Shown here piece after piece: positions 50,987 to 61,844 of a DNA stretch of 64,000 nt; within the stretch, counting starts at the first letter, position 1; each line of letters opens with the position of its first letter. The notes below the pieces were generated by a model that had not been told where the DNA came from, did not search any database, and saw nothing but the letters and a program-made list of their open reading frames with translations. Source of the DNA: Planctomycetota bacterium (GTDB taxonomy: Bacteria > Planctomycetota > B15-G4); contig JAJDER010000038.1 in the NCBI GenBank assembly GCA_029259725.1, positions 5,784 through 69,783 on the forward strand, given 5' to 3'. The position numbers and the translations under genes are program-made.

Positions 50987-51293
50987 GAAGAAGATCCGCC
51001 CCGTCGCCCTGTCCCGACTCGAGGCCGAGGAACGCCACGCCGAGGCCTTCGCGGCCCTGGGCCATGCCTCGCGTCTGCAGGTCTTCTTCCTGCTCGTGCG
51101 GGCCCGGGGCGAGGTGGCGGTGGGGGAGATCGCCGAGGCCACCGGCATCCCGGGCCCGACGCTCAACCACCATGTCGACAGGCTCAAGCGCGTCGGCCTG
51201 GTCAGCACCCGCCGCGACGGTCGCTACGTGCTCTGCGCCGCCCGCCGCGAACTCGTCAACGAACTCGTGAGGCTGCTCACCGCCTGCTGCTGA
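50985..51293 (+). CDS. arsR: ArsR/SmtB family repressor with C-terminal CC pair
   Basis: AFAALGHASRLQVFFLL, TLNHHVDRLKRVGLV, terminal TACC. Confidence 0.88.
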   Translation: MKKIRPVALSRLEAEERHAEAFAALGHASRLQVFFLLVRARGEVAVGEIAEATGIPGPTLNHHVDRLKRVGLVSTRRDGRYVLCAARRELVNELVRLLTACC

Positions 51294-51328
51294 GGCCGCC
51301 GCCCACCCCGAACGCACGGAGTCCCGCC

Positions 51329-51820
51329 ATGCATCCCCGCGTCCACGTGCACCTGCCCGTGTCCGACCTCGATGCCAGCCGCGCCTTCTACGCGGCGTTC
51401 CTCGGGGCCGAACCGGTCAAGGACCGCCCCGGCTACGTGAAGTTCCTGCCCGCCGTCGCGCCGTTGAACCTCGCCCTCAGCGTCGGTCCCGTCGGCCCGA
51501 TGCTGGGCGACGTACACGCCGGTCTGGAACTGGCCAGCAGCGAAGCCGTCTCGGCGCAGCTGGAGCGCGTGCAGGCGGAAGGCCTGCCCGTGCGCGTCGA
51601 GTGGGGCACCGACTGCTGCCACGCCAACCAGGACAAGTTCTGGGTGGCGGATCCCGACGGCCGGAACTGGGAGGTCTACCACCTCAACCACGACCTGTCC
51701 GACGCGAGCGACGGCGTGCCGGTCTCGCTGCCGGTCTCGGGTGACGCCTCCGTGGACGGCGGCTCGTGTTGCGCCCCCGGCGCATGCGTGCCCCCGCCGA
51801 CGGTCATCGGACCTGGGTGA
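51329..51820 (+). CDS. VOC-fold ArsI/CadI-like metalloenzyme (C-As lyase family)
   Basis: RVHVHLPVSDLDAS..FY..PVK.RPGYVKF, PLNLAL, TDCCHANQDKFWV.DPDG..WEVY. Confidence 0.88.
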   Translation: MHPRVHVHLPVSDLDASRAFYAAFLGAEPVKDRPGYVKFLPAVAPLNLALSVGPVGPMLGDVHAGLELASSEAVSAQLERVQAEGLPVRVEWGTDCCHANQDKFWVADPDGRNWEVYHLNHDLSDASDGVPVSLPVSGDASVDGGSCCAPGACVPPPTVIGPG

Positions 51821-52008
51821 CCCTGGGTGACCGGCCCCGGCGATGCGCGGGAGGGTCGCCGGTCCCGCGAGCGCCACGTCCCTGCCGCAAGCCTCGTCAT
51901 GGACGCCACGGGCGGCCGCGGCTTACCCTGACCCGGCTTCGGTGCCTCGACGCCGCCCCGCGTCGGCACCCACTCGGCACCCCTTCGCTACGCCCCGGGA
52001 GACACCCC

Positions 52009-54045
52009 ATGCGTTCCTCCGCCCTGTTCGCGCTGCTCTTGTCGGCGCCGGCCGTCGCCGCGACCGGTGACGAGTGGAAGGCCCAGTGGGCCCTCGACAA
52101 GACCCCGCTGAACCGTTCCGGGCAGCAGCTCACGGACGACACCAACGCGCATCTCGCCGCCGCGCGCGAGCTGATGGCCGAGATCATCGCCGTCGAGGGT
52201 CCGCGCACGCTGGACAACACGCTCGAGCTGTACAACCGACTGCTCATGCACCTCGACGCGACGTCGAACGAGAACAGCCTGCTGGCCCAGGTGCACCCGG
52301 ACAAGAGCGTGGTCGAAGCGGCCCAGCTCAACCGGCAGGAGGTCTCGAAGATGTTCACCGAGCTCTCCCTGTCCCGGGAACTCTACGAGGCCGTCGCCGC
52401 CGTGGACCTCTCCAGCGCCGACGAGGCCACGGTGTTCTTCGTGGAGAAGGAGCTCGACGATTTCCGTCGCGGCGGCGTGGACAAGCCCGAGGACGTGCGC
52501 GCACGCATCACCGAGCTGAACGAGACGCTCACGAAGCTGGGCCAGGACTTCTCGCAGAACATCGCCGAGGACACCAAGGAGGTGAAGCTGGACCCCGAGG
52601 ACCTGGCCGGCCTGCCCGAGGACTGGATCGCCGGGCACCCCGTCGGCGAGGACGGCAAGGTCATCGTCAACACCAGCTATCCGGACTACGTGCCCTTCAT
52701 CCGCTACGCGGAGAGCGCCGACGCCCGCGAGGCGATGTACAAGGCCTACCAGACCCGCGCCTACCCCGTGAACGTGGAGGTGTTGCGCAACGTCCTGGAG
52801 GCCCGCTACGAGTACGCCACGCTGCTCGGCTTCGAGGACTACGCCGACTACGTCACCGCGGACAAGATGATCGGGACGGCGCAGAACGCACAGGACTTCA
52901 TCGACCGCATCTCGGCCGCGGCAGCGCGCCCGGTGGTCGCCGAGCAGCGCGACCTGCTGCGCTACAAGCAGAAGGACCAGCCCCTGGCCGACACGATCGA
53001 GGACTACGAGAAGGCCTACTACGGCAACCTCGTGCGCAAGGAGCGCTTCGACTTCGACAGCAAGTCCGTGCGCCCGTACTTCGACTTCGACACGGTGCAG
53101 GCCGGGCTGTTCGAGTTGACCGGCAGCCTGTTCGGCGTCGAGTACCGGCGCGTGGACGGCCTGGATCTCTGGCACGAGGACGTCAGCGCCTGGGACCTCT
53201 ACGAGGGCGACCGCCACATCGGCCGCTTCTTCCTCGACCTGCATCCGCGCCCCGACAAGTACAACCACGCCGCGTGCTTCGGGTACCGCGACGGGATCGC
53301 GGGCGTGCGCCTGCCCCAGGCCACGCTGGTCTGCAACTTCCCCAACCCGCGGGCGAGCGAGGACGGGCACGCGCTCATGGAGCACGGTGACGTCACCACG
53401 TTCTTCCACGAGTTCGGCCACCTGCTGCACAACCTGTTCGCCGGTCACCGGCGCTGGGCGGGCAACACGGGCATCTCGACCGAGTGGGACTTCGTCGAGG
53501 CGCCCAGCCAGTTGCTCGAGGAGTGGTGCTACGACCCGGGTGCGCTGGCGGTCTTCGCCAAGCACTACCAGACGGGCGAGGTGATCCCGCCGGAGCTGGT
53601 CGGCAAGCTGCGCGAGGCCGCCGACTTCGGCAAGGCCAGCAATGTCGCCCATCAGATGTTCTACGCGGCGCTGTCGCTGAACTACTACGACCACGCTCCC
53701 GGTGACGTCGACATGGAGGCGATGAAGAAGGAGCTGCAGGCGCGCTACACGCCGTACCCGTACGTCGAGGGCACGCACATGCAGTGCAGCTTCGGTCACC
53801 TGTACGGCTACTCGGCGATCTACTACACCTACATGTGGTCGCAGGTCATCGCCAAGGACCTGTTCAGTCGCTTCGAGGCCGAAGGCGTGCTCAACCCCGA
53901 GGTCGCGCTGTCGTACCGCCGGCAGGTGCTCGACCCGGGCGGCAGCAAGCCGGCCGGCGAGCTGGTCGAGCAGTTCCTGGGACGGCCCTACAGCTTCGAG
54001 GCCTTCGAGCGCTGGCTGGGCGAGGGGCCGGACGCAGACGACTAG
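52009..54045 (+). CDS. Secreted M3 family oligopeptidase (thimet / oligopeptidase A-like)
   Basis: Signal peptide; FFLDLHPRPDKYNHAA, TTFFHEFGHLLH, DFVEAPSQLLEEW, FGHLYGYSAIYYTYMWS. Confidence 0.93.
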   Translation: MRSSALFALLLSAPAVAATGDEWKAQWALDKTPLNRSGQQLTDDTNAHLAAARELMAEIIAVEGPRTLDNTLELYNRLLMHLDATSNENSLLAQVHPDKSVVEAAQLNRQEVSKMFTELSLSRELYEAVAAVDLSSADEATVFFVEKELDDFRRGGVDKPEDVRARITELNETLTKLGQDFSQNIAEDTKEVKLDPEDLAGLPEDWIAGHPVGEDGKVIVNTSYPDYVPFIRYAESADAREAMYKAYQTRAYPVNVEVLRNVLEARYEYATLLGFEDYADYVTADKMIGTAQNAQDFIDRISAAAARPVVAEQRDLLRYKQKDQPLADTIEDYEKAYYGNLVRKERFDFDSKSVRPYFDFDTVQAGLFELTGSLFGVEYRRVDGLDLWHEDVSAWDLYEGDRHIGRFFLDLHPRPDKYNHAACFGYRDGIAGVRLPQATLVCNFPNPRASEDGHALMEHGDVTTFFHEFGHLLHNLFAGHRRWAGNTGISTEWDFVEAPSQLLEEWCYDPGALAVFAKHYQTGEVIPPELVGKLREAADFGKASNVAHQMFYAALSLNYYDHAPGDVDMEAMKKELQARYTPYPYVEGTHMQCSFGHLYGYSAIYYTYMWSQVIAKDLFSRFEAEGVLNPEVALSYRRQVLDPGGSKPAGELVEQFLGRPYSFEAFERWLGEGPDADD

Positions 54046-54073
54046 CAGCCCCCTCGCGCCGGGTGCACGCGAC

Positions 54074-54229
54074 GTGGCCCGGACGGGGTGCGCCCCGCCC
54101 GTGGAGTGCAAGCAGGTGTTCATGGACGAAGGGACCTCGGAGCTCGATCCGCCGCGCCACGCCGCGTTGCGCCGTGACCTCGCGAACACGCTCCCAGGAC
54201 TGCGCGAGAGCCTGGCGGACCTGCTGTGA
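54074..54229 (+). pseudogene. C-terminal remnant of an N-formylglutamate amidohydrolase-family gene
   Basis: Manual translation VARTGCAPPVECKQVFMDEGTSELDPPRHAALRRDLANTLPGLRESLADLL*. Resembles the recalled FGase C-terminus (TGCALAIEFKKFFMDEWTG...); its stop overlaps the next gene's GTG (GTGA). Confidence 0.6.
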
Positions 54230-56130
54230 CCCGCGCCCCCGTCATCGACGACGCCTTCCTGGCGGACGTGAGCGCGCGGCTGCGTGCCGGGAACCGCGTG
54301 CGCCGGGCCCTCGACGAGGGTGGCAGGCTGCACGTCGAGCGGCAGCTCCCGTTCCTGGTCGTGCACCGCCGGATCGCGGACCGCGAGGCGCCCGGGACGG
54401 AGGCCCTGGTGACCGCGACGGCGTCCTGGATGCAGGCGTCCGGCGAGCGCCGCCACCATCGCCGCCTCAAGGCCCTGGTGACGTCGTGGGCGGACGTGAT
54501 GGCCGAGGCCTTCGGGTCGACCATCCTGCTCGAGATCTGGTCCGGCCCGGTGGAGGCGAACGCCGACGAGGAGCCTCCCGACGACCTCGCCGCGCCGGCC
54601 TTTCGCATCCTCGCCCCCCGGCGTGGGCCCTCCGGTCTCGCCGTGCGCGTGCTGGCCGAGTCCCTGGGCGCGTTGCGCGTGCGACGTCGCCGGGCGCGGG
54701 TGCGTATCGCCTACACGGCCCGCCGACGCCCGCCCGGCATGCCCGCGCTGTTGAGCACGGCCGAGGCCGATGCGCGCGGCTGCACCGTCCTCGGGCTGGA
54801 GGTCCGTCCGGTGCACGCCGACGCCGGCGAGTCCGAGCTGTTCCCGCTCGTCCTGCGGACCCTCAGGCGGCGCCTCGGCTCGGCGCTGCACGAGGGCTTC
54901 TTCGCCTTCGCTCACGACCAGACCACGCATCGTCCCGCGCACTATCACGAGCTGGGGCGTCGTGTGCTGTCGCGCGCTGCGCGCGAGGTGGACGGCCGTC
55001 TGGCCGCGATCAGCGAGTCCTTCGACTTCCTGCTGGCCTGCACCCCCGTCGACACGGACCCGGCCTGGGAACGGTTCCGCCGGCGCGGGATGTCGACGCC
55101 GCCGACGCTCCACTACCGACCGCTGAGCTTCGACCCGGCCCGGCTCAAGCGCGAGCTGTACGCCGCCCCGATCGAGAAGGTGGAGGACCCGGCGCTGTCG
55201 GCACTGTTCCGCGGCAAGCAACTCGAGCTGGACCGCCAGCTCACGCTGCTGCTGGACCGTCAGACGCGCCGCTTCCTCCCCGGGGGCCTGGCGCTCTACG
55301 GCCCGGTCGAGCCACCGCTGCGCCGGCTGGCCGGGCGCGTGCTCCGAGCGATTCCGCCGGGCCGCTCCGAGAGCGGTCGCGGCACCGTCGACGCGCTCGG
55401 GTTCGCCGCCGCCGCGGAGCGCGAGCTGGCCTTGCTGCGCACCCAGTGGCCGGAGATGCCGGGGGGCGTCGTGGTGCGGAAGGACCTCCCCGCCGGCCTC
55501 ATGGTCTCGCACGGCCGGCTGCTGATCGGGGCCGGGTTCCGCGTGCCCCGCTCCCGGGTCGACGCCCTGCTCCAGCATGAGGTCGGGACCCACGTGCTCA
55601 CCTACGCCAACGGCCGCGCCCAGCCCTTCCAGCAGCTCTCGGTCGGGCTCGACGGCTACGACGCGCTGCAGGAGGGGCTCGCGGTGCTGGCCGAGCACCT
55701 GGTGGGCGGGCTTCCGGGCAGCCGGCTGCGCCTGCTCGCCGGGCGGGTCCTGGCCGCCGCATCCGTCGAGGACGGCGCCGACTTCGTGGAGACCTTCGCG
55801 CTGCTGACCGCCAAGGGCTTCGAGCACCGGGTGGCCTTCGGCGTGACCATGCGCGTCCACCGCGCCGGCGGCCTGATCAAGGACGCGGTCTACCTGCGCG
55901 GCCTGGCGGAGGTGCTGGGCCTGCTCGCGGACGGCGTCGAGATCGACGATCTCTATGTCGGCAAGATCGCCGCCGTGCATCTGGGCACGGTCCGGGAACT
56001 CCGCCGGCGGCGCATCCTGATCGAGCCTCCGTTGCGCCCGCGCTTCCTCACGGATCCCGACGCTGCGGGGAGGTTGCGCGCCGTGCGTGCGGGTGTCACC
56101 GTCATCGACCTGGCCAAGGAGGCACGATGA
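54226..56130 (+). CDS. QEGLA-motif (DUF1704, MATCAP-like) zinc metallopeptidase
   Basis: LLQHEVGTHVLTYANG (HExxxH) and YDALQEGLAVLAE; RGGG-like RAGGLIKDAVYLRG, LYVGKI. Confidence 0.9.
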   Translation: MTRAPVIDDAFLADVSARLRAGNRVRRALDEGGRLHVERQLPFLVVHRRIADREAPGTEALVTATASWMQASGERRHHRRLKALVTSWADVMAEAFGSTILLEIWSGPVEANADEEPPDDLAAPAFRILAPRRGPSGLAVRVLAESLGALRVRRRRARVRIAYTARRRPPGMPALLSTAEADARGCTVLGLEVRPVHADAGESELFPLVLRTLRRRLGSALHEGFFAFAHDQTTHRPAHYHELGRRVLSRAAREVDGRLAAISESFDFLLACTPVDTDPAWERFRRRGMSTPPTLHYRPLSFDPARLKRELYAAPIEKVEDPALSALFRGKQLELDRQLTLLLDRQTRRFLPGGLALYGPVEPPLRRLAGRVLRAIPPGRSESGRGTVDALGFAAAAERELALLRTQWPEMPGGVVVRKDLPAGLMVSHGRLLIGAGFRVPRSRVDALLQHEVGTHVLTYANGRAQPFQQLSVGLDGYDALQEGLAVLAEHLVGGLPGSRLRLLAGRVLAAASVEDGADFVETFALLTAKGFEHRVAFGVTMRVHRAGGLIKDAVYLRGLAEVLGLLADGVEIDDLYVGKIAAVHLGTVRELRRRRILIEPPLRPRFLTDPDAAGRLRAVRAGVTVIDLAKEAR

Positions 56131-57176
56131 ACGTCGGTTTCGTTGTCAACGACGTCCGCACCGAGGAGGCGAGCTACACGACGGTGCGCATGGCGATGGC
56201 GGCCCACAACCTGGGTCATCGCGCGTGGGTCATCGGCGTGGGGGACTTCGCGCTCGACGCGGACGATCGCGTCCGCGCTCGCGCCGTCACGGTGCCGGCG
56301 AACAAGAAGGGCTACAAGACCGGCGCCACCTTCCTGTCGGACCTCCTCGGCGGCAAGGCGGTGCGCGAGCGCATCACGGTCGACGACCTCGACGTGCTGC
56401 TGCTGCGCAACGACCCGGCCGGCGACGCCCATCGACCGTGGGCCCAGGGCGCCGGGATCATGTTCGGCCGCGCCGCCGTGCGCAGCGGTGTGATCGTGCT
56501 CAACGATCCCAACGGCCTGGCCAAGGCGATGAACAAGTCGTACTTCCAGCTCTTCCCGGAAGAGGTGCGCCCGCCGACGCTGATCACGCGCGACGCCGGC
56601 GAGATCAAGGTCTTCGCCAAGGAGCACGGCAACCACATCGTGCTCAAGCCGCTCCAGGGCAGCGGCGGGCAGAGCGTGTTCCTGGTGCGGCCCGACGAGG
56701 TCGCCAACATCAACCAGATGATCGACGCCGTGGCGCGCGACGGCTACGTGATCGCGCAGCAGTACCTGCCCGCGGCGGAGGCCGGCGACATGCGCCTGTT
56801 CGTCGTGAACGGCGAGCCGCTGCGGCACAAGGGCAAGTACGCGGCCTTCCGGCGGGTGCGCCGCGGCGGCGACCTGCGCAGCAACATCCATGCGGGCGGC
56901 AGCCTGGCGCCCGCCGAAGTCGACGACGTGGCGCTGCAGGTGGCCGAGATCGTGCGTCCCAAGCTGGTGCAGGACGGCATGTACATCGTCGGTCTCGACA
57001 TCGTCGGCGACAAGCTCATGGAGATCAACGTGTTCAGCCCGGGCGGGCTGGGCAGCGCGCAGAAGTTCACCGGTGTCAACTTCGCGCGCGTGGTCATCCG
57101 CGACCTGGAGCGCAAGGTGCGGTACATGAACTACTACCGCCGCAACTTCGACAACGTCGAGCTGGCCGCGCTCTGA
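56127..57176 (+). CDS. Glutathione synthetase-like ATP-grasp ligase
   Basis: LLRNDP, LNDPNGL..NK.Y, IVLKPLQGSGG..VF, QQYLP..GDMRL, GLDIVGDKLMEINVFSPGG; ATGA overlap with the QEGLA gene. Confidence 0.85.
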   Translation: MNVGFVVNDVRTEEASYTTVRMAMAAHNLGHRAWVIGVGDFALDADDRVRARAVTVPANKKGYKTGATFLSDLLGGKAVRERITVDDLDVLLLRNDPAGDAHRPWAQGAGIMFGRAAVRSGVIVLNDPNGLAKAMNKSYFQLFPEEVRPPTLITRDAGEIKVFAKEHGNHIVLKPLQGSGGQSVFLVRPDEVANINQMIDAVARDGYVIAQQYLPAAEAGDMRLFVVNGEPLRHKGKYAAFRRVRRGGDLRSNIHAGGSLAPAEVDDVALQVAEIVRPKLVQDGMYIVGLDIVGDKLMEINVFSPGGLGSAQKFTGVNFARVVIRDLERKVRYMNYYRRNFDNVELAAL

Positions 57177-57198
57177 GCCGACGCGCGCTGCAGGCGCG

Positions 57199-58041
57199 TC
57201 AGCGCACGGGACCCGGCCGCCAGGCGATGACGGTCAGGTCATCGGGCTTGCCGGGCGCGGCGTCGCCGGTCATGCGCGCGCGGGCGCCGTGCACGAGGCG
57301 CTCCACGGCGCGGAGCAGCGGTCCGCGGCGCACGATCTCGACGATCTCGTCCAGCGGGAGGTTGTCGAAGAGCCCGTCGCTGGCGAGCAGGATCGTGTCG
57401 CGCGGCGCGAGCGGGATCGGCGAGCCGATCTCGATGTGCATGTCGGCGGCGCCGAGGGCGTTGCTGACCAGGTGCCGGTCCTCGTGGACCATGGCGGCCT
57501 CCTCGTCGAGCAGGCCGGCCTCCACGGCGTAGCCCACCGGCGAGTGGGGCGTGGTCTGGTGCTTCACGCGGCCGCGCTGCCCGGTGACCAGCGCCTGGCT
57601 GTCCCCGGCGTGGTGGATGCGCACGCTGCCGTCGCGCAGCTCGGCGACCAGCAGGGTGGTGGCCGCGCCGCCCGGGAGCGCGGAGACGGCGGCGTTGGCC
57701 AGCTCGAAACCGTCCAGCACGACGTCGCGCAGGTCGCGCCGGGCGTCGGTCTCGGCCGCGCCGGCCTCGGTGATGGCGGTGCACAGGGCCTGCGTGGCGC
57801 CGGCCGAGGCCTGGTCGCCCACCGCATGGCCGCCGACCCCGTCGGCCACGATGAGCGCGCCCGCTTCGTCGCCGTACGCGAGAGCCGCGGCGGCGTCCTC
57901 GTTGCCGGCGTCGCCGCCCTTGAGCGGGGAGCGATGGGTGTAGAGCACCGCCGTGCCGCCGGCCACGCGGACCACGTGCGGGGCGTCGAGGTCGTCGCCC
58001 AGGAGCACGAGGGGCAGCTCGGGGCCTCGATCAGCGCCCAC
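57199..58041 (-). CDS. PP2C-family Ser/Thr phosphatase
   Basis: NEDAA, IVADGVGGHAVGDQAS, HAGDS, LLASDGLFDN, DDLTVI; GGAGG SD before GTG 58041. Confidence 0.9.
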   Translation of the reverse strand: MGADRGPELPLVLLGDDLDAPHVVRVAGGTAVLYTHRSPLKGGDAGNEDAAAALAYGDEAGALIVADGVGGHAVGDQASAGATQALCTAITEAGAAETDARRDLRDVVLDGFELANAAVSALPGGAATTLLVAELRDGSVRIHHAGDSQALVTGQRGRVKHQTTPHSPVGYAVEAGLLDEEAAMVHEDRHLVSNALGAADMHIEIGSPIPLAPRDTILLASDGLFDNLPLDEIVEIVRRGPLLRAVERLVHGARARMTGDAAPGKPDDLTVIAWRPGPVR

Positions 58042-59347
58042 GGGTCCTCCTGGCTTCGAGGTCTCTTCCGCACCAGGCACAGTGCGCCCAGAAGCCGCCG
58101 GCCACGCCCCACGAGCAGCGCGGGCACTTCGCCTTCGAGCCGGTCAGGAGCCAGCGTCGCTGCACCTTGCGGCGACACCACGGGCAGTAGCGCGAGAAGG
58201 GCATCAGGTCGCCGCGGCAGTGGGCGCAGTGGCCGGTGTAGCGTCGGTCGGTGAAGCTGCGCGTGGACAGCGGGCCGATCGCCGCGCCGTGGCACCAGGC
58301 GCAGGAAGGCCAGTCCAGCTTCACGCCGCGGCGGCAGCGCGGGCACTGCGCCGGGCAGTCCACCGCGCCGCGGTGCCGCTTGCGGTCGTTGCCGCACCAG
58401 GGGCAGGTGGTCATGGCCTCGCTCACGGGGCCGTGGCAGCGACCGCACTCCCCGAACGGGCCGAGCGTCTTGCCGAAGTCGCGCCGGAACTGGGTGTGGC
58501 GGATGGCCTTCCAGTCGGCGCGCTTGCCCGGGGCCTGGGAGCCGTTGCGCTGGCGCAGGGTCTTGCGGCGGGAGTCGTCGCCCAGGATGCGCGGGCGCAG
58601 CTTGCGGAAGGCCATCAGCAGGGCGGTGGCGTCGCGCGGGCGCTGCCTCTCGTTGACACTCAGGGTCCGCTCGAGCAGCGCGGCCAGCTCCGGATGCAGG
58701 CGCCGGAGCCGGTCGGCCCCGGGCAGCGGCGCGCGATAGGGCCACTCGGGCAGGCGCCGCGTGAGCAGCCGCCAGATGACCAGGCCGGCGGAGAACACGT
58801 CCGAGCGCAGACTGGGCTTGCCCATGGCCTGCTCGGGGGCGATGTAGCCGACCGTCCCGGTCCCTCCGGCCGCCAGCGTGCGCTGGGCGACCTTGGAGAT
58901 GCCGAAGTCGGTGAGCCGCAGCCGGTCGTTGAAGAGCAGCAGGTTGTCGGGCTTCACGTCACAGTGGATCACGCGCTCCTGGTGGGCGTACGACAGGGCC
59001 TCGAGCAGCTGCTGCGACCAATCGAGTGCGGTGCGCAGCGCGACGGCGCGCTCCATGCGCTCGGCGAGGGTGCGGTCACCGAGGGGCTGCACGATGACGA
59101 AGTGCCCGTCGATGAACCCGGCCGTCTTGACCGGCACGATGCCCGGATGGTCCAGGCGGGCGGTCAGGCGGACCTCGCGCCGGAAGTCCTCCAGGGTGGC
59201 CTTCGTGACCAGGTGGCGGTGGGGGACCTTGAGGGCCACGCGGATGCCCTCGACGGTGTCCTGCGCCTCGTAGACCTCGGCGAAACCGCCCTTGGCGAGG
59301 CGGCGCACCACGCGGTACTTGTCGAGACGTTGTCGCGCCTTCAGCAC
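58031..59347 (-). CDS. Hanks-type Ser/Thr kinase with four C-terminal zinc-ribbon CxxC pairs
   Basis: VALK, HCDVKPDN, TDFG, GTVGYIAPE, SDVFS; eight CxxC motifs (CGRC, CPWC, CPRC, CAWC, CAHC, CPWC, CPRC, CAWC). Confidence 0.92.
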   Translation of the reverse strand: MLKARQRLDKYRVVRRLAKGGFAEVYEAQDTVEGIRVALKVPHRHLVTKATLEDFRREVRLTARLDHPGIVPVKTAGFIDGHFVIVQPLGDRTLAERMERAVALRTALDWSQQLLEALSYAHQERVIHCDVKPDNLLLFNDRLRLTDFGISKVAQRTLAAGGTGTVGYIAPEQAMGKPSLRSDVFSAGLVIWRLLTRRLPEWPYRAPLPGADRLRRLHPELAALLERTLSVNERQRPRDATALLMAFRKLRPRILGDDSRRKTLRQRNGSQAPGKRADWKAIRHTQFRRDFGKTLGPFGECGRCHGPVSEAMTTCPWCGNDRKRHRGAVDCPAQCPRCRRGVKLDWPSCAWCHGAAIGPLSTRSFTDRRYTGHCAHCRGDLMPFSRYCPWCRRKVQRRWLLTGSKAKCPRCSWGVAGGFWAHCAWCGRDLEARRTRGR

Positions 59348-59454
59348 ACCCGGTCCCCGGCGCCGGTCGTCGGTGCCGGCGGCGAGACAGGTTAGACCTC
59401 GGCGGGCCCTTCGGCCACGATGGCGCGGCACTTCTCGACGCGAGCTGCCGCCCC

Positions 59455-60986: not shown

Positions 60987-61844
60987 ATGCCCGACAGCCT
61001 GAAGGACCTGCTGGCCGGCTTCACGCCCCTCGAGCAGAGCGCGATCGTCGTGGGCGCGATGATCGCGGCGTTCCTCGTGTTTCGCGTCGTCGTGCTGGCC
61101 GGCATGGAGCGGGTCGCGCGGGCGACCGACAACGACCTCGACGACCGACTGGTCCACTTCGCGCGCCGCTTCGGCGGGTTCGGGATCCTGTTCCTCGGGA
61201 TCGTCGGGATCCTGAAGGTGCACGAAGTCGAGGTCTCGCCGCTGCTCGCCGGCGCGGGCATCGCCGGCGCAGCGCTGGCCTTCGCGGCCAAGGAGACCAT
61301 CGCCGACGTGCTCGCCGGAGTGTTCCTGATCGCCGATCGTCCCATGCGCGTGGGCGACCGCGTGAAGATCGAGGACATCGGCCGCCACTGGGGCGCCTGG
61401 GGTGACGTGATCGACATCGGCTTGCGCCGCACGACGATCCGCAACACCGACGGCGTCGTGGTCAACTATCCGAACGCGGTGCTGGCCCACTCGGTGATCA
61501 CCAACTTCTCGCACGAGCCCGAGCCCGTGCGCGTGCGTGTGCGCTTCGCGGTCGACTACGATGCGGACCTGCAGCGCGTGCGCGAGGTGGCAGCCGGCGC
61601 GGCCACCTCGTCGGCGGGCGTGCGGCCCGACTCGGTCGACGTCGTCATCCGCTCGCTCTGGGACGACACGCGCGGCAATCTGCTCGCCGGCGTGTTGGTG
61701 GAGGTGCGCTACCGCATCGACGAGGTGCGCCAGCGCACCCGCATCCGCTCCGAGGTGCTCGCCGCGATCCACGCCGGCCTGCGGGAAGCGGGGATTCCGC
61801 TCCCGGCGTCCCGCCTGCAGCTGTCGGGGCGTGGGGCGGACTGA
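60987..61844 (+). CDS. mscS: Small-conductance mechanosensitive channel
   Basis: LLAGAGIAGAALAFAAKETIAD..AG, RVGDRVKI, DIGLRRTTIR..DG..V.YPN. Confidence 0.92.
   Translation: MPDSLKDLLAGFTPLEQSAIVVGAMIAAFLVFRVVVLAGMERVARATDNDLDDRLVHFARRFGGFGILFLGIVGILKVHEVEVSPLLAGAGIAGAALAFAAKETIADVLAGVFLIADRPMRVGDRVKIEDIGRHWGAWGDVIDIGLRRTTIRNTDGVVVNYPNAVLAHSVITNFSHEPEPVRVRVRFAVDYDADLQRVREVAAGAATSSAGVRPDSVDVVIRSLWDDTRGNLLAGVLVEVRYRIDEVRQRTRIRSEVLAAIHAGLREAGIPLPASRLQLSGRGAD

Follow-up and report, generated by a model that had tools for sequence, protein, structure and literature searches.

What would a bacterium do with a relative of the tubulin-modifying peptidase MATCAP whose gene runs directly into that of a ligase resembling glutathione synthetase? 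The question is raised by a 64-kb stretch of Planctomycetota DNA (hereafter the window), in which two long plus-strand open reading frames (ORFs), both high in GC3 and lying in a region of ~72% G+C, occupy positions 54226-57176. The two genes are designated here M (MATCAP-family peptidase) and L (PRK12458-type ATP-grasp ligase), and the gene that accompanies them at most other loci F (an amidohydrolase resembling N-formylglutamate amidohydrolase, FGase). M and L are a translationally coupled unit conserved across more than 12 phyla, and we consider it probable that F, M and L represent a cytoplasmic ligase and two hydrolases acting on one acidic substrate and tuned to ionic or osmotic state. 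The host assembly amounts to 4.8 Mb at 84% completeness, a caveat for the genome-wide absence of gshA reported below.

The peptidase M and its conserved partners

An initial annotation of this sequence had singled out the two ORFs, their ATGA overlap, the motifs HEVGTH and QEGLA of M (residues 451-456 and 482-486) and the motifs LLRNDP and EINVFSPGG of L (residues 92-97 and 299-307). All of these are present as claimed, the stop of M and the start of L sharing the four bases at 56127-56130. The same annotation related M, as a DUF1704/QEGLA protein, to MATCAP, and this kinship is borne out at several levels. M matches the Pfam MATCAP family PF08014 over residues 282-613 with 261 bits against a gathering cut-off of 27 (E 2.2e-77), and it scores 297.5 bits on the ‘QEGLA’ equivalog TIGR02421, under the cut-off of 338.65. 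A profile of the M family finds human KIAA0895L/MATCAP at E 2.4e-7, with the HExxxH and EEGLA motifs aligned (HEIGTH and EEGLA in the human protein). An AlphaFold2 (AF2) model of M built on 25 homologues (predicted local distance difference test, pLDDT, 86.6) has human MATCAP on the microtubule, 7z6s_C, as its top Foldseek match in the PDB (E 8.9e-8, probability 1.00, target-normalised template modelling score, TM, 0.69), and this is also its sole strong match there. Both sequence and fold mark M as a true member of the MATCAP family.

The catalytic core is strongly conserved within the family. Residues H451, E452, H456, Q482, E483, G484 and E490 of M are at least 97% conserved among 81 family members, and M departs from the family at 2 of 62 invariant columns. 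It is a predicted zinc carboxypeptidase and keeps its zinc site. In the human enzyme TMCP1 the E281A mutant is catalytically inactive, and the MATCAP family (TMCPs) removes Tyr and Glu from C-termini and trims polyglutamate chains, sparing the branch-point residue (PMC10499314). The latter property invites a division of labour between M and F.

M is of the long form, a subfamily distinguished by an additional N-terminal domain. A database search recovered over 2000 homologues; the best 120 of them, 608-666 aa in length, cover 94-100% of the query at 45-52% identity, with one exception at 69%, and this near full-length alignment indicates that the N-terminal 245-280 residues, which lack a Pfam match, are real and conserved. 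Their invariant residues are R26, G33, R39, P42, R48, E103 and G190. Modelled alone with AF2 (pLDDT 87.7, predicted TM score 0.88), the domain adopts an alpha/beta phosphorylase/hydrolase-like fold, and its Foldseek matches, all at E ~1e-3, comprise the FGase structure 2q7s_A (probability 1.00, TM 0.42), the Amidase_3 protein AmiP (7b3n, TM 0.51 on the target) and PNP/MTAN folds. Against the F family, hhalign gives the domain a collinear but weak alignment of 134 columns (probability 4%, P 0.0095). The model thus suggests a domain that is FGase/amidase-like at the level of fold only.

The genomic company of M was followed by scanning one genome per species, which yielded 80 loci encoding the long form. 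Represented among them are Planctomycetota, Chloroflexota, Acidobacteriota, Calditrichota, Bacteroidota/Ignavibacteria, Campylobacterota, Gammaproteobacteria, Actinomycetota, Myxococcota, Gemmatimonadota, Verrucomicrobiota-related groups and others. At 76 of the 80 loci a homologue of L is present in full length (49-73% identity). As two of the other four stop directly behind M, this amounts to 76 of the 78 informative loci; in 69 loci the ligase follows M on the same strand. The pair singled out initially therefore holds together across genomes rather than breaking down, which counts in favour of that annotation. All-against-all ORF clustering brought out a third gene of ~267 aa in 68 loci, belonging to the FGase family (PF05013, E 2e-20), and in 53 loci F, M and L follow one another in this order on a single strand, mostly with stop and start codons that overlap. 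Some loci depart from this plan in having a second M, or two to three ligases in tandem. Neither the trio with an FGase-like gene, nor the conserved 245-residue N-terminal domain of M, nor a remnant of F in the window (see below) had been seen in the earlier reading.

The association also holds within the phylum. Among 151 sampled Planctomycetota genomes, L scores at least 407 bits in four only, each time adjoining a long-form M or within ~2 kb of it. Another 20 genomes of this set have higher Pfam MATCAP scores (217-430 bits), mostly in frames of ~410-550 aa, and lack a PRK12458 ligase at cut-off. Examples of such shorter, higher-scoring frames are G151:C166:85203-86327 and G074:C96:25772-26860; weaker ligase-like matches were observed in genomes G178 and G151, and one of the 20 genomes has a weaker ligase-like neighbour. 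A role in defence was considered and rejected, as no PADLOC family matches M or L at E ≤ 0.001.

The ligase L and the glutathione question

L has the two-domain architecture of GshB, with Pfam matches to GSH-S_ATP (PF02955, E 2.1e-48) and GSH-S_N (PF02951, E 1.1e-10), and the solved structure nearest to it is that of E. coli GshB (1GSA, E 1.5e-37). Its best model, NF009110 (446.4 bits against a cut-off of 408, residues 1-348 of 349), describes the PRK12458 subfamily, which both NCBIfam and PGAP name ‘glutathione synthetase’. Taken at face value, these matches would make L a real glutathione synthetase, or the maker of an analogue where the canonical enzyme is missing, and M and F the turnover peptidases of a thiol peptide; two weak GCS2-family carboxylate-amine ligases encoded on other contigs of the host could then make the gamma-glutamyl donor. 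We regard this reading as highly improbable, and the following evidence bears on it.

L falls under both GshB equivalog cut-offs (TIGR01380, 193 against 299.05 bits; NF003573, 205.3 against 272), as do all four L paralogues of the host genome, a number that housekeeping glutathione synthesis does not explain. In a maximum-likelihood tree, seven canonical GshB proteins form one clade (Shimodaira-Hasegawa-like approximate likelihood ratio test 99) separated by a branch of 4.64 from 84 L proteins, among which a subclade, L2, comprises those ligases placed directly behind M where a locus has several. No gshA, the gene whose absence from the window had been pointed out initially, was found in the window or in the host genome: PF04262 has no match, and the two GCS2 matches reach 30-51 bits, far under the gshA/YbdK cut-offs of 176-409. 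Canonical GshB is found in 0 of 41 genomes from the same family or order as the host, where L-type matches occur only in the two genomes with M. Conversely, all six gammaproteobacterial carriers of the module keep a canonical GshB (405-452 bits) at another locus in addition to an L (187-201 bits) beside M, the scores being bimodal. The view that the ligase departs from GshB, and probably serves an end other than glutathione, is thereby upheld, and L is neither a canonical glutathione synthetase nor the GshB of this organism.

The residues that carry out ATP-grasp chemistry are nevertheless shared with canonical GshB. The catalytic, ATP- and Mg-binding set of L (K137, K174, GSGG 178-181, D221, R223, R243, R251, N253, D291, E299 and N301) aligns with K125, K160, 164-167, D208, R210, R225, R233, N235, D273, E281 and N283 of the E. 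coli enzyme; every catalytic residue is retained, and L departs at 1 of 67 family-invariant columns, whereas canonical GshB differs at 24-28 of these. Differences from GshB extend to insertions of eight and five residues and a 30-residue C-terminal extension, and the GshB-specific KKDSS and SPTCIRE motifs are replaced. The corresponding motifs are GGDLRSNIHAGG and SPGGLGS in L, EGDFRSNLHRGG and SP-GLEG in RimK, and GGETRGNLAAGG and SPTCIRE in GshB. Although L is under the RimK family model (rimK_fam, TIGR00768; 74.7 against 143.4 bits), its RimK-like character at two active-site motifs suggests that the incoming amino acid may be glutamate-like. It should be noted that statements on the substrate pocket of L derive solely from family-specific conservation.

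In L proteins from more than 12 phyla the C-terminal tail is conserved up to its final residue (consensus YYRRNFDNxEMATL), while canonical GshB and RimK end earlier. This tail may serve as a docking site for M or F, act as an autoinhibitory plug or be a substrate in its own right.

Ionic clues and a proposed cycle

The genes that recur around the module in the 80 loci encode MscS channels, MgtE, CorA, CNNM/CorC, an unverified SLC13/TrkA_C-type permease and sigma-54 activators, and of the 49 loci that span at least 15 kb, 20 include one or more ion-related clusters. Transcriptome data from Photobacterium damselae at 1% versus 3% NaCl offer a second line of evidence: a 342-aa ‘glutathione synthase’, read by the authors as GshB, is up 38-fold and a 660-aa QEGLA protein 27-fold, their genes overlap by 17 nucleotides, and rimK is up 52-fold alongside in the same low-salt comparison (PMC10308900). 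Protein size and gene overlap suggest that this pair is M-L. The Mg2+ transporter and MscS neighbours, together with induction at low salinity, suggest a cycle connected with ion or osmotic stress.

A sequence of reactions can be proposed for such a cycle. L would spend ATP on activating a carboxylate of an acidic acceptor as the acyl-phosphate and would then add an amino acid, perhaps a glutamate-like one; candidate acceptors are small peptides, N-acyl amino acids and protein C-terminal tails. M would trim alpha-linked C-terminal residues, as MATCAP/TMCP enzymes do with Tyr and Glu, and F would hydrolyse the leftover N-acyl or isopeptide amide. Acting together, the three enzymes could set the level or the length of an acidic peptide or tail according to ionic or osmotic state. 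The writer/eraser cycle put forward in the initial annotation remains plausible, and a protein is no likelier as its substrate than a small acidic metabolite.

Several observations weigh against this proposal. The acceptor, the amino acid added and the activities of all three enzymes are predicted from homology. When small ORFs (25-110 aa) lying up to 1.5 kb from the module were clustered over the 80 loci, no cluster was present in more than three, so that no co-encoded precursor or carrier peptide was found there. The link to ion transporters appears in ~40% of the long loci and could reflect shared regulation and not shared function, and the PRK12458 type of the Photobacterium ligase is read from size and overlap only. 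The match of the modelled N-terminal domain of M to FGase is weak (TM 0.4-0.5). Finally, the window copy is without F, its M evolves faster than its L, and no promoter-like site was found upstream of it.

The nature of the substrate separates the proposed cycle from protein tagging, in which L would add amino acids to the tail of a protein encoded elsewhere (for example a ribosomal protein, as RimK does, or the tail of L itself) and M and F would remove them, as a bacterial counterpart of tubulin tyrosination or glutamylation. Membership of M in a family that acts on protein tails is compatible with tagging, as are the two active-site motifs that L shares with RimK, a modifier of a protein C-terminus, the conservation of the extreme C-terminus of L and the co-induction of rimK with the pair at low salt in Photobacterium. 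Yet no conserved acidic-tailed protein is found near the module in the 80 loci, just as no conserved small ORF is; the N-terminal domain that L has in common with GshB handles a small substrate in the latter; and enzymes of the FGase family are known for small N-acyl amino acids. LysW-like proteins were considered as the substrate and rejected: the one on host contig C14 has its own LysX-like ligase, and the orphan gene on contig C135 has homologues in seven relatives without F-M-L. On balance, protein tagging appears unlikely.

It is tempting to go further and imagine an ancient and widespread ‘tail code’ or peptide-buffer system that was the prokaryotic source of the eukaryotic MATCAP fold. 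At low osmolarity or ionic strength L would add glutamate-type residues to a protein C-terminus, possibly its own NFDNxEMATL tail, or to a free oligopeptide, and M and F would release them. If this were true, an acidic osmolyte pool and its Mg2+/K+ counter-ions would be coupled to mechanosensitive channels and Mg2+ transporters. We offer this version as a speculation with a low chance of being correct.

Known systems resemble the proposed F-M-L cycle in part. The closest in terms of the peptidase is the eukaryotic tubulin tail cycle, in which TTL/TTLL ligases oppose MATCAP1/2 (KIAA0895L/KIAA0895, TMCP1/2): there too, an ATP-grasp ligase is paired with a HExxxH zinc carboxypeptidase of the MATCAP family. 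Unlike that cycle, the bacterial unit combines a GshB-like and not a TTL-like ligase with a peptidase that is ~16% identical to MATCAP and has the additional 245-residue N-terminal domain, F belongs to it, its genes form one operon, and the bacteria considered here offer no tubulin tail as a substrate.

A parallel in the types of activity is found in animal metabolism of N-acetylaspartylglutamate (NAAG) and beta-citrylglutamate. RIMKLA and RIMKLB, which are ATP-grasp ligases, add Glu to an N-acyl or acidic acid, glutamate carboxypeptidase II/III removes the C-terminal Glu, and the amidohydrolase aspartoacylase splits the rest. These three activities may be set beside those proposed for L, M and F by way of analogy, the hydrolases being of the M28 and aspartoacylase families in animals and of the MATCAP and FGase families here. 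In the LysX/LysW/LysK system, a RimK-family ligase attaches an amino acid to a small protein at its acidic C-terminal tail, and the product is set free by a metallohydrolase; in contrast, F-M-L loci contain neither a carrier gene nor pathway enzymes, and the host has LysW and LysX separately.

Among bacterial systems, RimK-RimB-RimA, responsible for poly-alpha-glutamylation of S6 in Pseudomonas and E. coli, shares with L the D-[FL]-RSN-[IL]-H-x-GG loop and the SPG motif. According to two reports, rimK encodes a bacterial ATP-grasp ligase that is co-transcribed with a peptidase reversing its product and responds to the environment (PMC4741518, PMC11957791). L differs in failing the RimK family model and in having a GshB-type N-terminal domain, and the partner peptidases are unrelated (a retropepsin there, MATCAP and FGase here). 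Compared with canonical GshB, the common ground is the GSH-S_N plus GSH-S_ATP architecture and the catalytic residues; what sets L apart is its separate clade, its insertions and extension, the lack of a gshA partner and its coexistence with true GshB in Gammaproteobacteria.

A search of the accessible literature found no biochemical or functional study of any member of the module, which is carried by thousands of bacterial genomes. The names of its proteins in databases are misleading, and the label ‘glutathione synthetase’ leads to false predictions of glutathione, as in this lineage without gshA or gshB. Should the module indeed build or trim an acidic peptide or tail according to salinity or Mg2+, it would constitute a new pathway of stress physiology and also the bacterial context from which tubulin-modifying MATCAP arose.

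The truncated copy in the window and its surroundings

A profile of 59 F proteins, run against the six-frame translation of the window, gives one significant match (E 6.9e-6), which covers profile positions 218-264 of 266 and shows 42% identity across 45 aa by tblastn (Table 1). The stop of this frame overlaps the start of M, as at intact F-M junctions. In the closest relative, represented by a metagenomic contig (locus L125), a membrane protein, a 48-aa ORF, an intact F (266 aa), M, L, a PP2C phosphatase and a Ser/Thr kinase follow one another; M is 69% identical in amino acids to window M, and L ~90% to window L. This locus is colinear with window positions 54253-59351 at 74-78% nucleotide identity, and there is no similarity upstream of 54253, where the window carries genes for a sulfatase, a glyoxalase-family protein and an M3 peptidase. 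Since synteny breaks inside F, an event specific to this lineage brought the upstream genes next to the module and took away ~80% of F. The window copy is thus a truncated module that lost F through a lineage-specific deletion, and it illustrates a natural F-less variant.

Table 1. Positions of the module and of neighbouring genes in the 64-kb window.
Feature	Positions	Strand	Remarks
Remnant of F	54080-54228	+	last 47 codons (54080-54220) plus stop TGA 54226-54228
Gene M, 634 aa, GTG start	54226-56130	+	PF08014, long form
N-terminal alpha/beta domain of M, residues 1-245	54226-54960	+	without Pfam match
Catalytic core of M	55576-55683	+	HEVGTH 55576-55593, QEGLA 55669-55683
Gene L, 349 aa, ATG start	56127-57176	+	PRK12458 subfamily
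C-terminal extension of L, ~30 aa (residues 320-349)	57084-57173	+	missing from GshB; ends ...YYRRNFDNVELAAL-COOH
M3 peptidase	51766-54045	+	PF01432, E 1.7e-105
PP2C phosphatase	57199-58080	-	convergent to L
Ser/Thr kinase, C-terminal double zinc ribbons	58031-59431	-	convergent to L
MscS-type channel	60987-61844	+	PF00924, PF21088; 3.8 kb downstream of L

Loss of F raises the question of whether the remaining pair still works. Rough ratios of nonsynonymous to synonymous substitution rates (dN/dS) against the orthologues of the closest relative are 0.16 for L, 0.41 for M and 0.44-0.70 for the flanking genes, and a promoter and terminator scan of 51000-57600 returned nothing beyond shuffled expectation. 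The window copy could accordingly be read as a decaying remnant whose M and L ceased to be expressed or useful once F and the upstream region were lost, the functional module being the one on contig C14. The truncation of F to 47 codons, the break of synteny inside it, the lack of a promoter-like site in the scan, the dN/dS of M and the long end branch of window L (0.42 against a median of 0.15) fit such decay. Nevertheless, both ORFs are full length and free of stops, their 2 of 62 and 1 of 67 deviations are within the family range, the dN/dS of L is low, window M is as similar to the M family as the M of contig C14, and the GTGA and ATGA junctions are kept. Decay is improbable, and judging by the integrity of their sequences the window M and L look functional despite the loss of F.

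The host genome holds one F, two M and four L in total. At C14:59705-66156 (locus L119), MgtE, L2, M and a sigma-54 activator lie on the minus strand in this order, and F, L1 and CNNM/CorC are divergent on the plus strand. The F located there (C14:64307-65086) is the sole intact one of the host and is directly followed by L1 with no M between, so that the host holds an F-L unit on C14 and an M-L unit in the window. For the window pair, the F step might then be supplied in trans from contig C14, or it might be dispensable. A relative from the same family, genome G010 (contig ‘Planctomycetota bacterium OFTM347’), combines M-L2, F-M-L1 and a lone L1.

The fourth ligase of the host, at C131:21682-22700 (locus L120:5731-6687), is very divergent, with 276 bits on NF009110, an end branch of 2.58 and 17 of 67 invariant columns deviating. 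No M or F lies near it, and the 463-aa protein encoded upstream of it is without a Pfam match. Some 16 kb from the C14 module, a LysW-like gene (C14:82068-82909; 50.9 bits, just under the TIGR01206 cut-off) lies beside a LysX-like ATP-grasp gene, and the two appear to be an ordinary amino-group carrier pair.

The initial annotation had also pointed to a secreted M3 oligopeptidase upstream on the same strand, and a link between it and the pair has to be dropped. No M3 gene accompanies the module in any of the 80 related loci, and in the window it abuts the scar of the F deletion. The functional link is rejected because M3 is predicted to be exported, as opposed to a cytoplasmic ATP-dependent ligase, and because synteny with the closest relative breaks before M3; the window thereby corrects this association. 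The M3 ORF contains a signal-peptide-like MRSSALFALLLSAPAVAA from residue 82. Its start is probably Met82 (~52009), the 81 upstream codons, rich in Arg and Pro, looking like a high-GC extension of the ORF.

Downstream of the pair, the genes for the PP2C phosphatase and the kinase are syntenic in the closest relative (L125:5037-7209) and are not among the recurrent clusters of the 80 distant loci. The 48-aa ORF between the membrane protein and F of that relative (L125:1043-1189) is not conserved in other loci. Further along the window, the MscS gene recalls the neighbours that the module has in other phyla, namely MscS, MgtE, CorA and CNNM.

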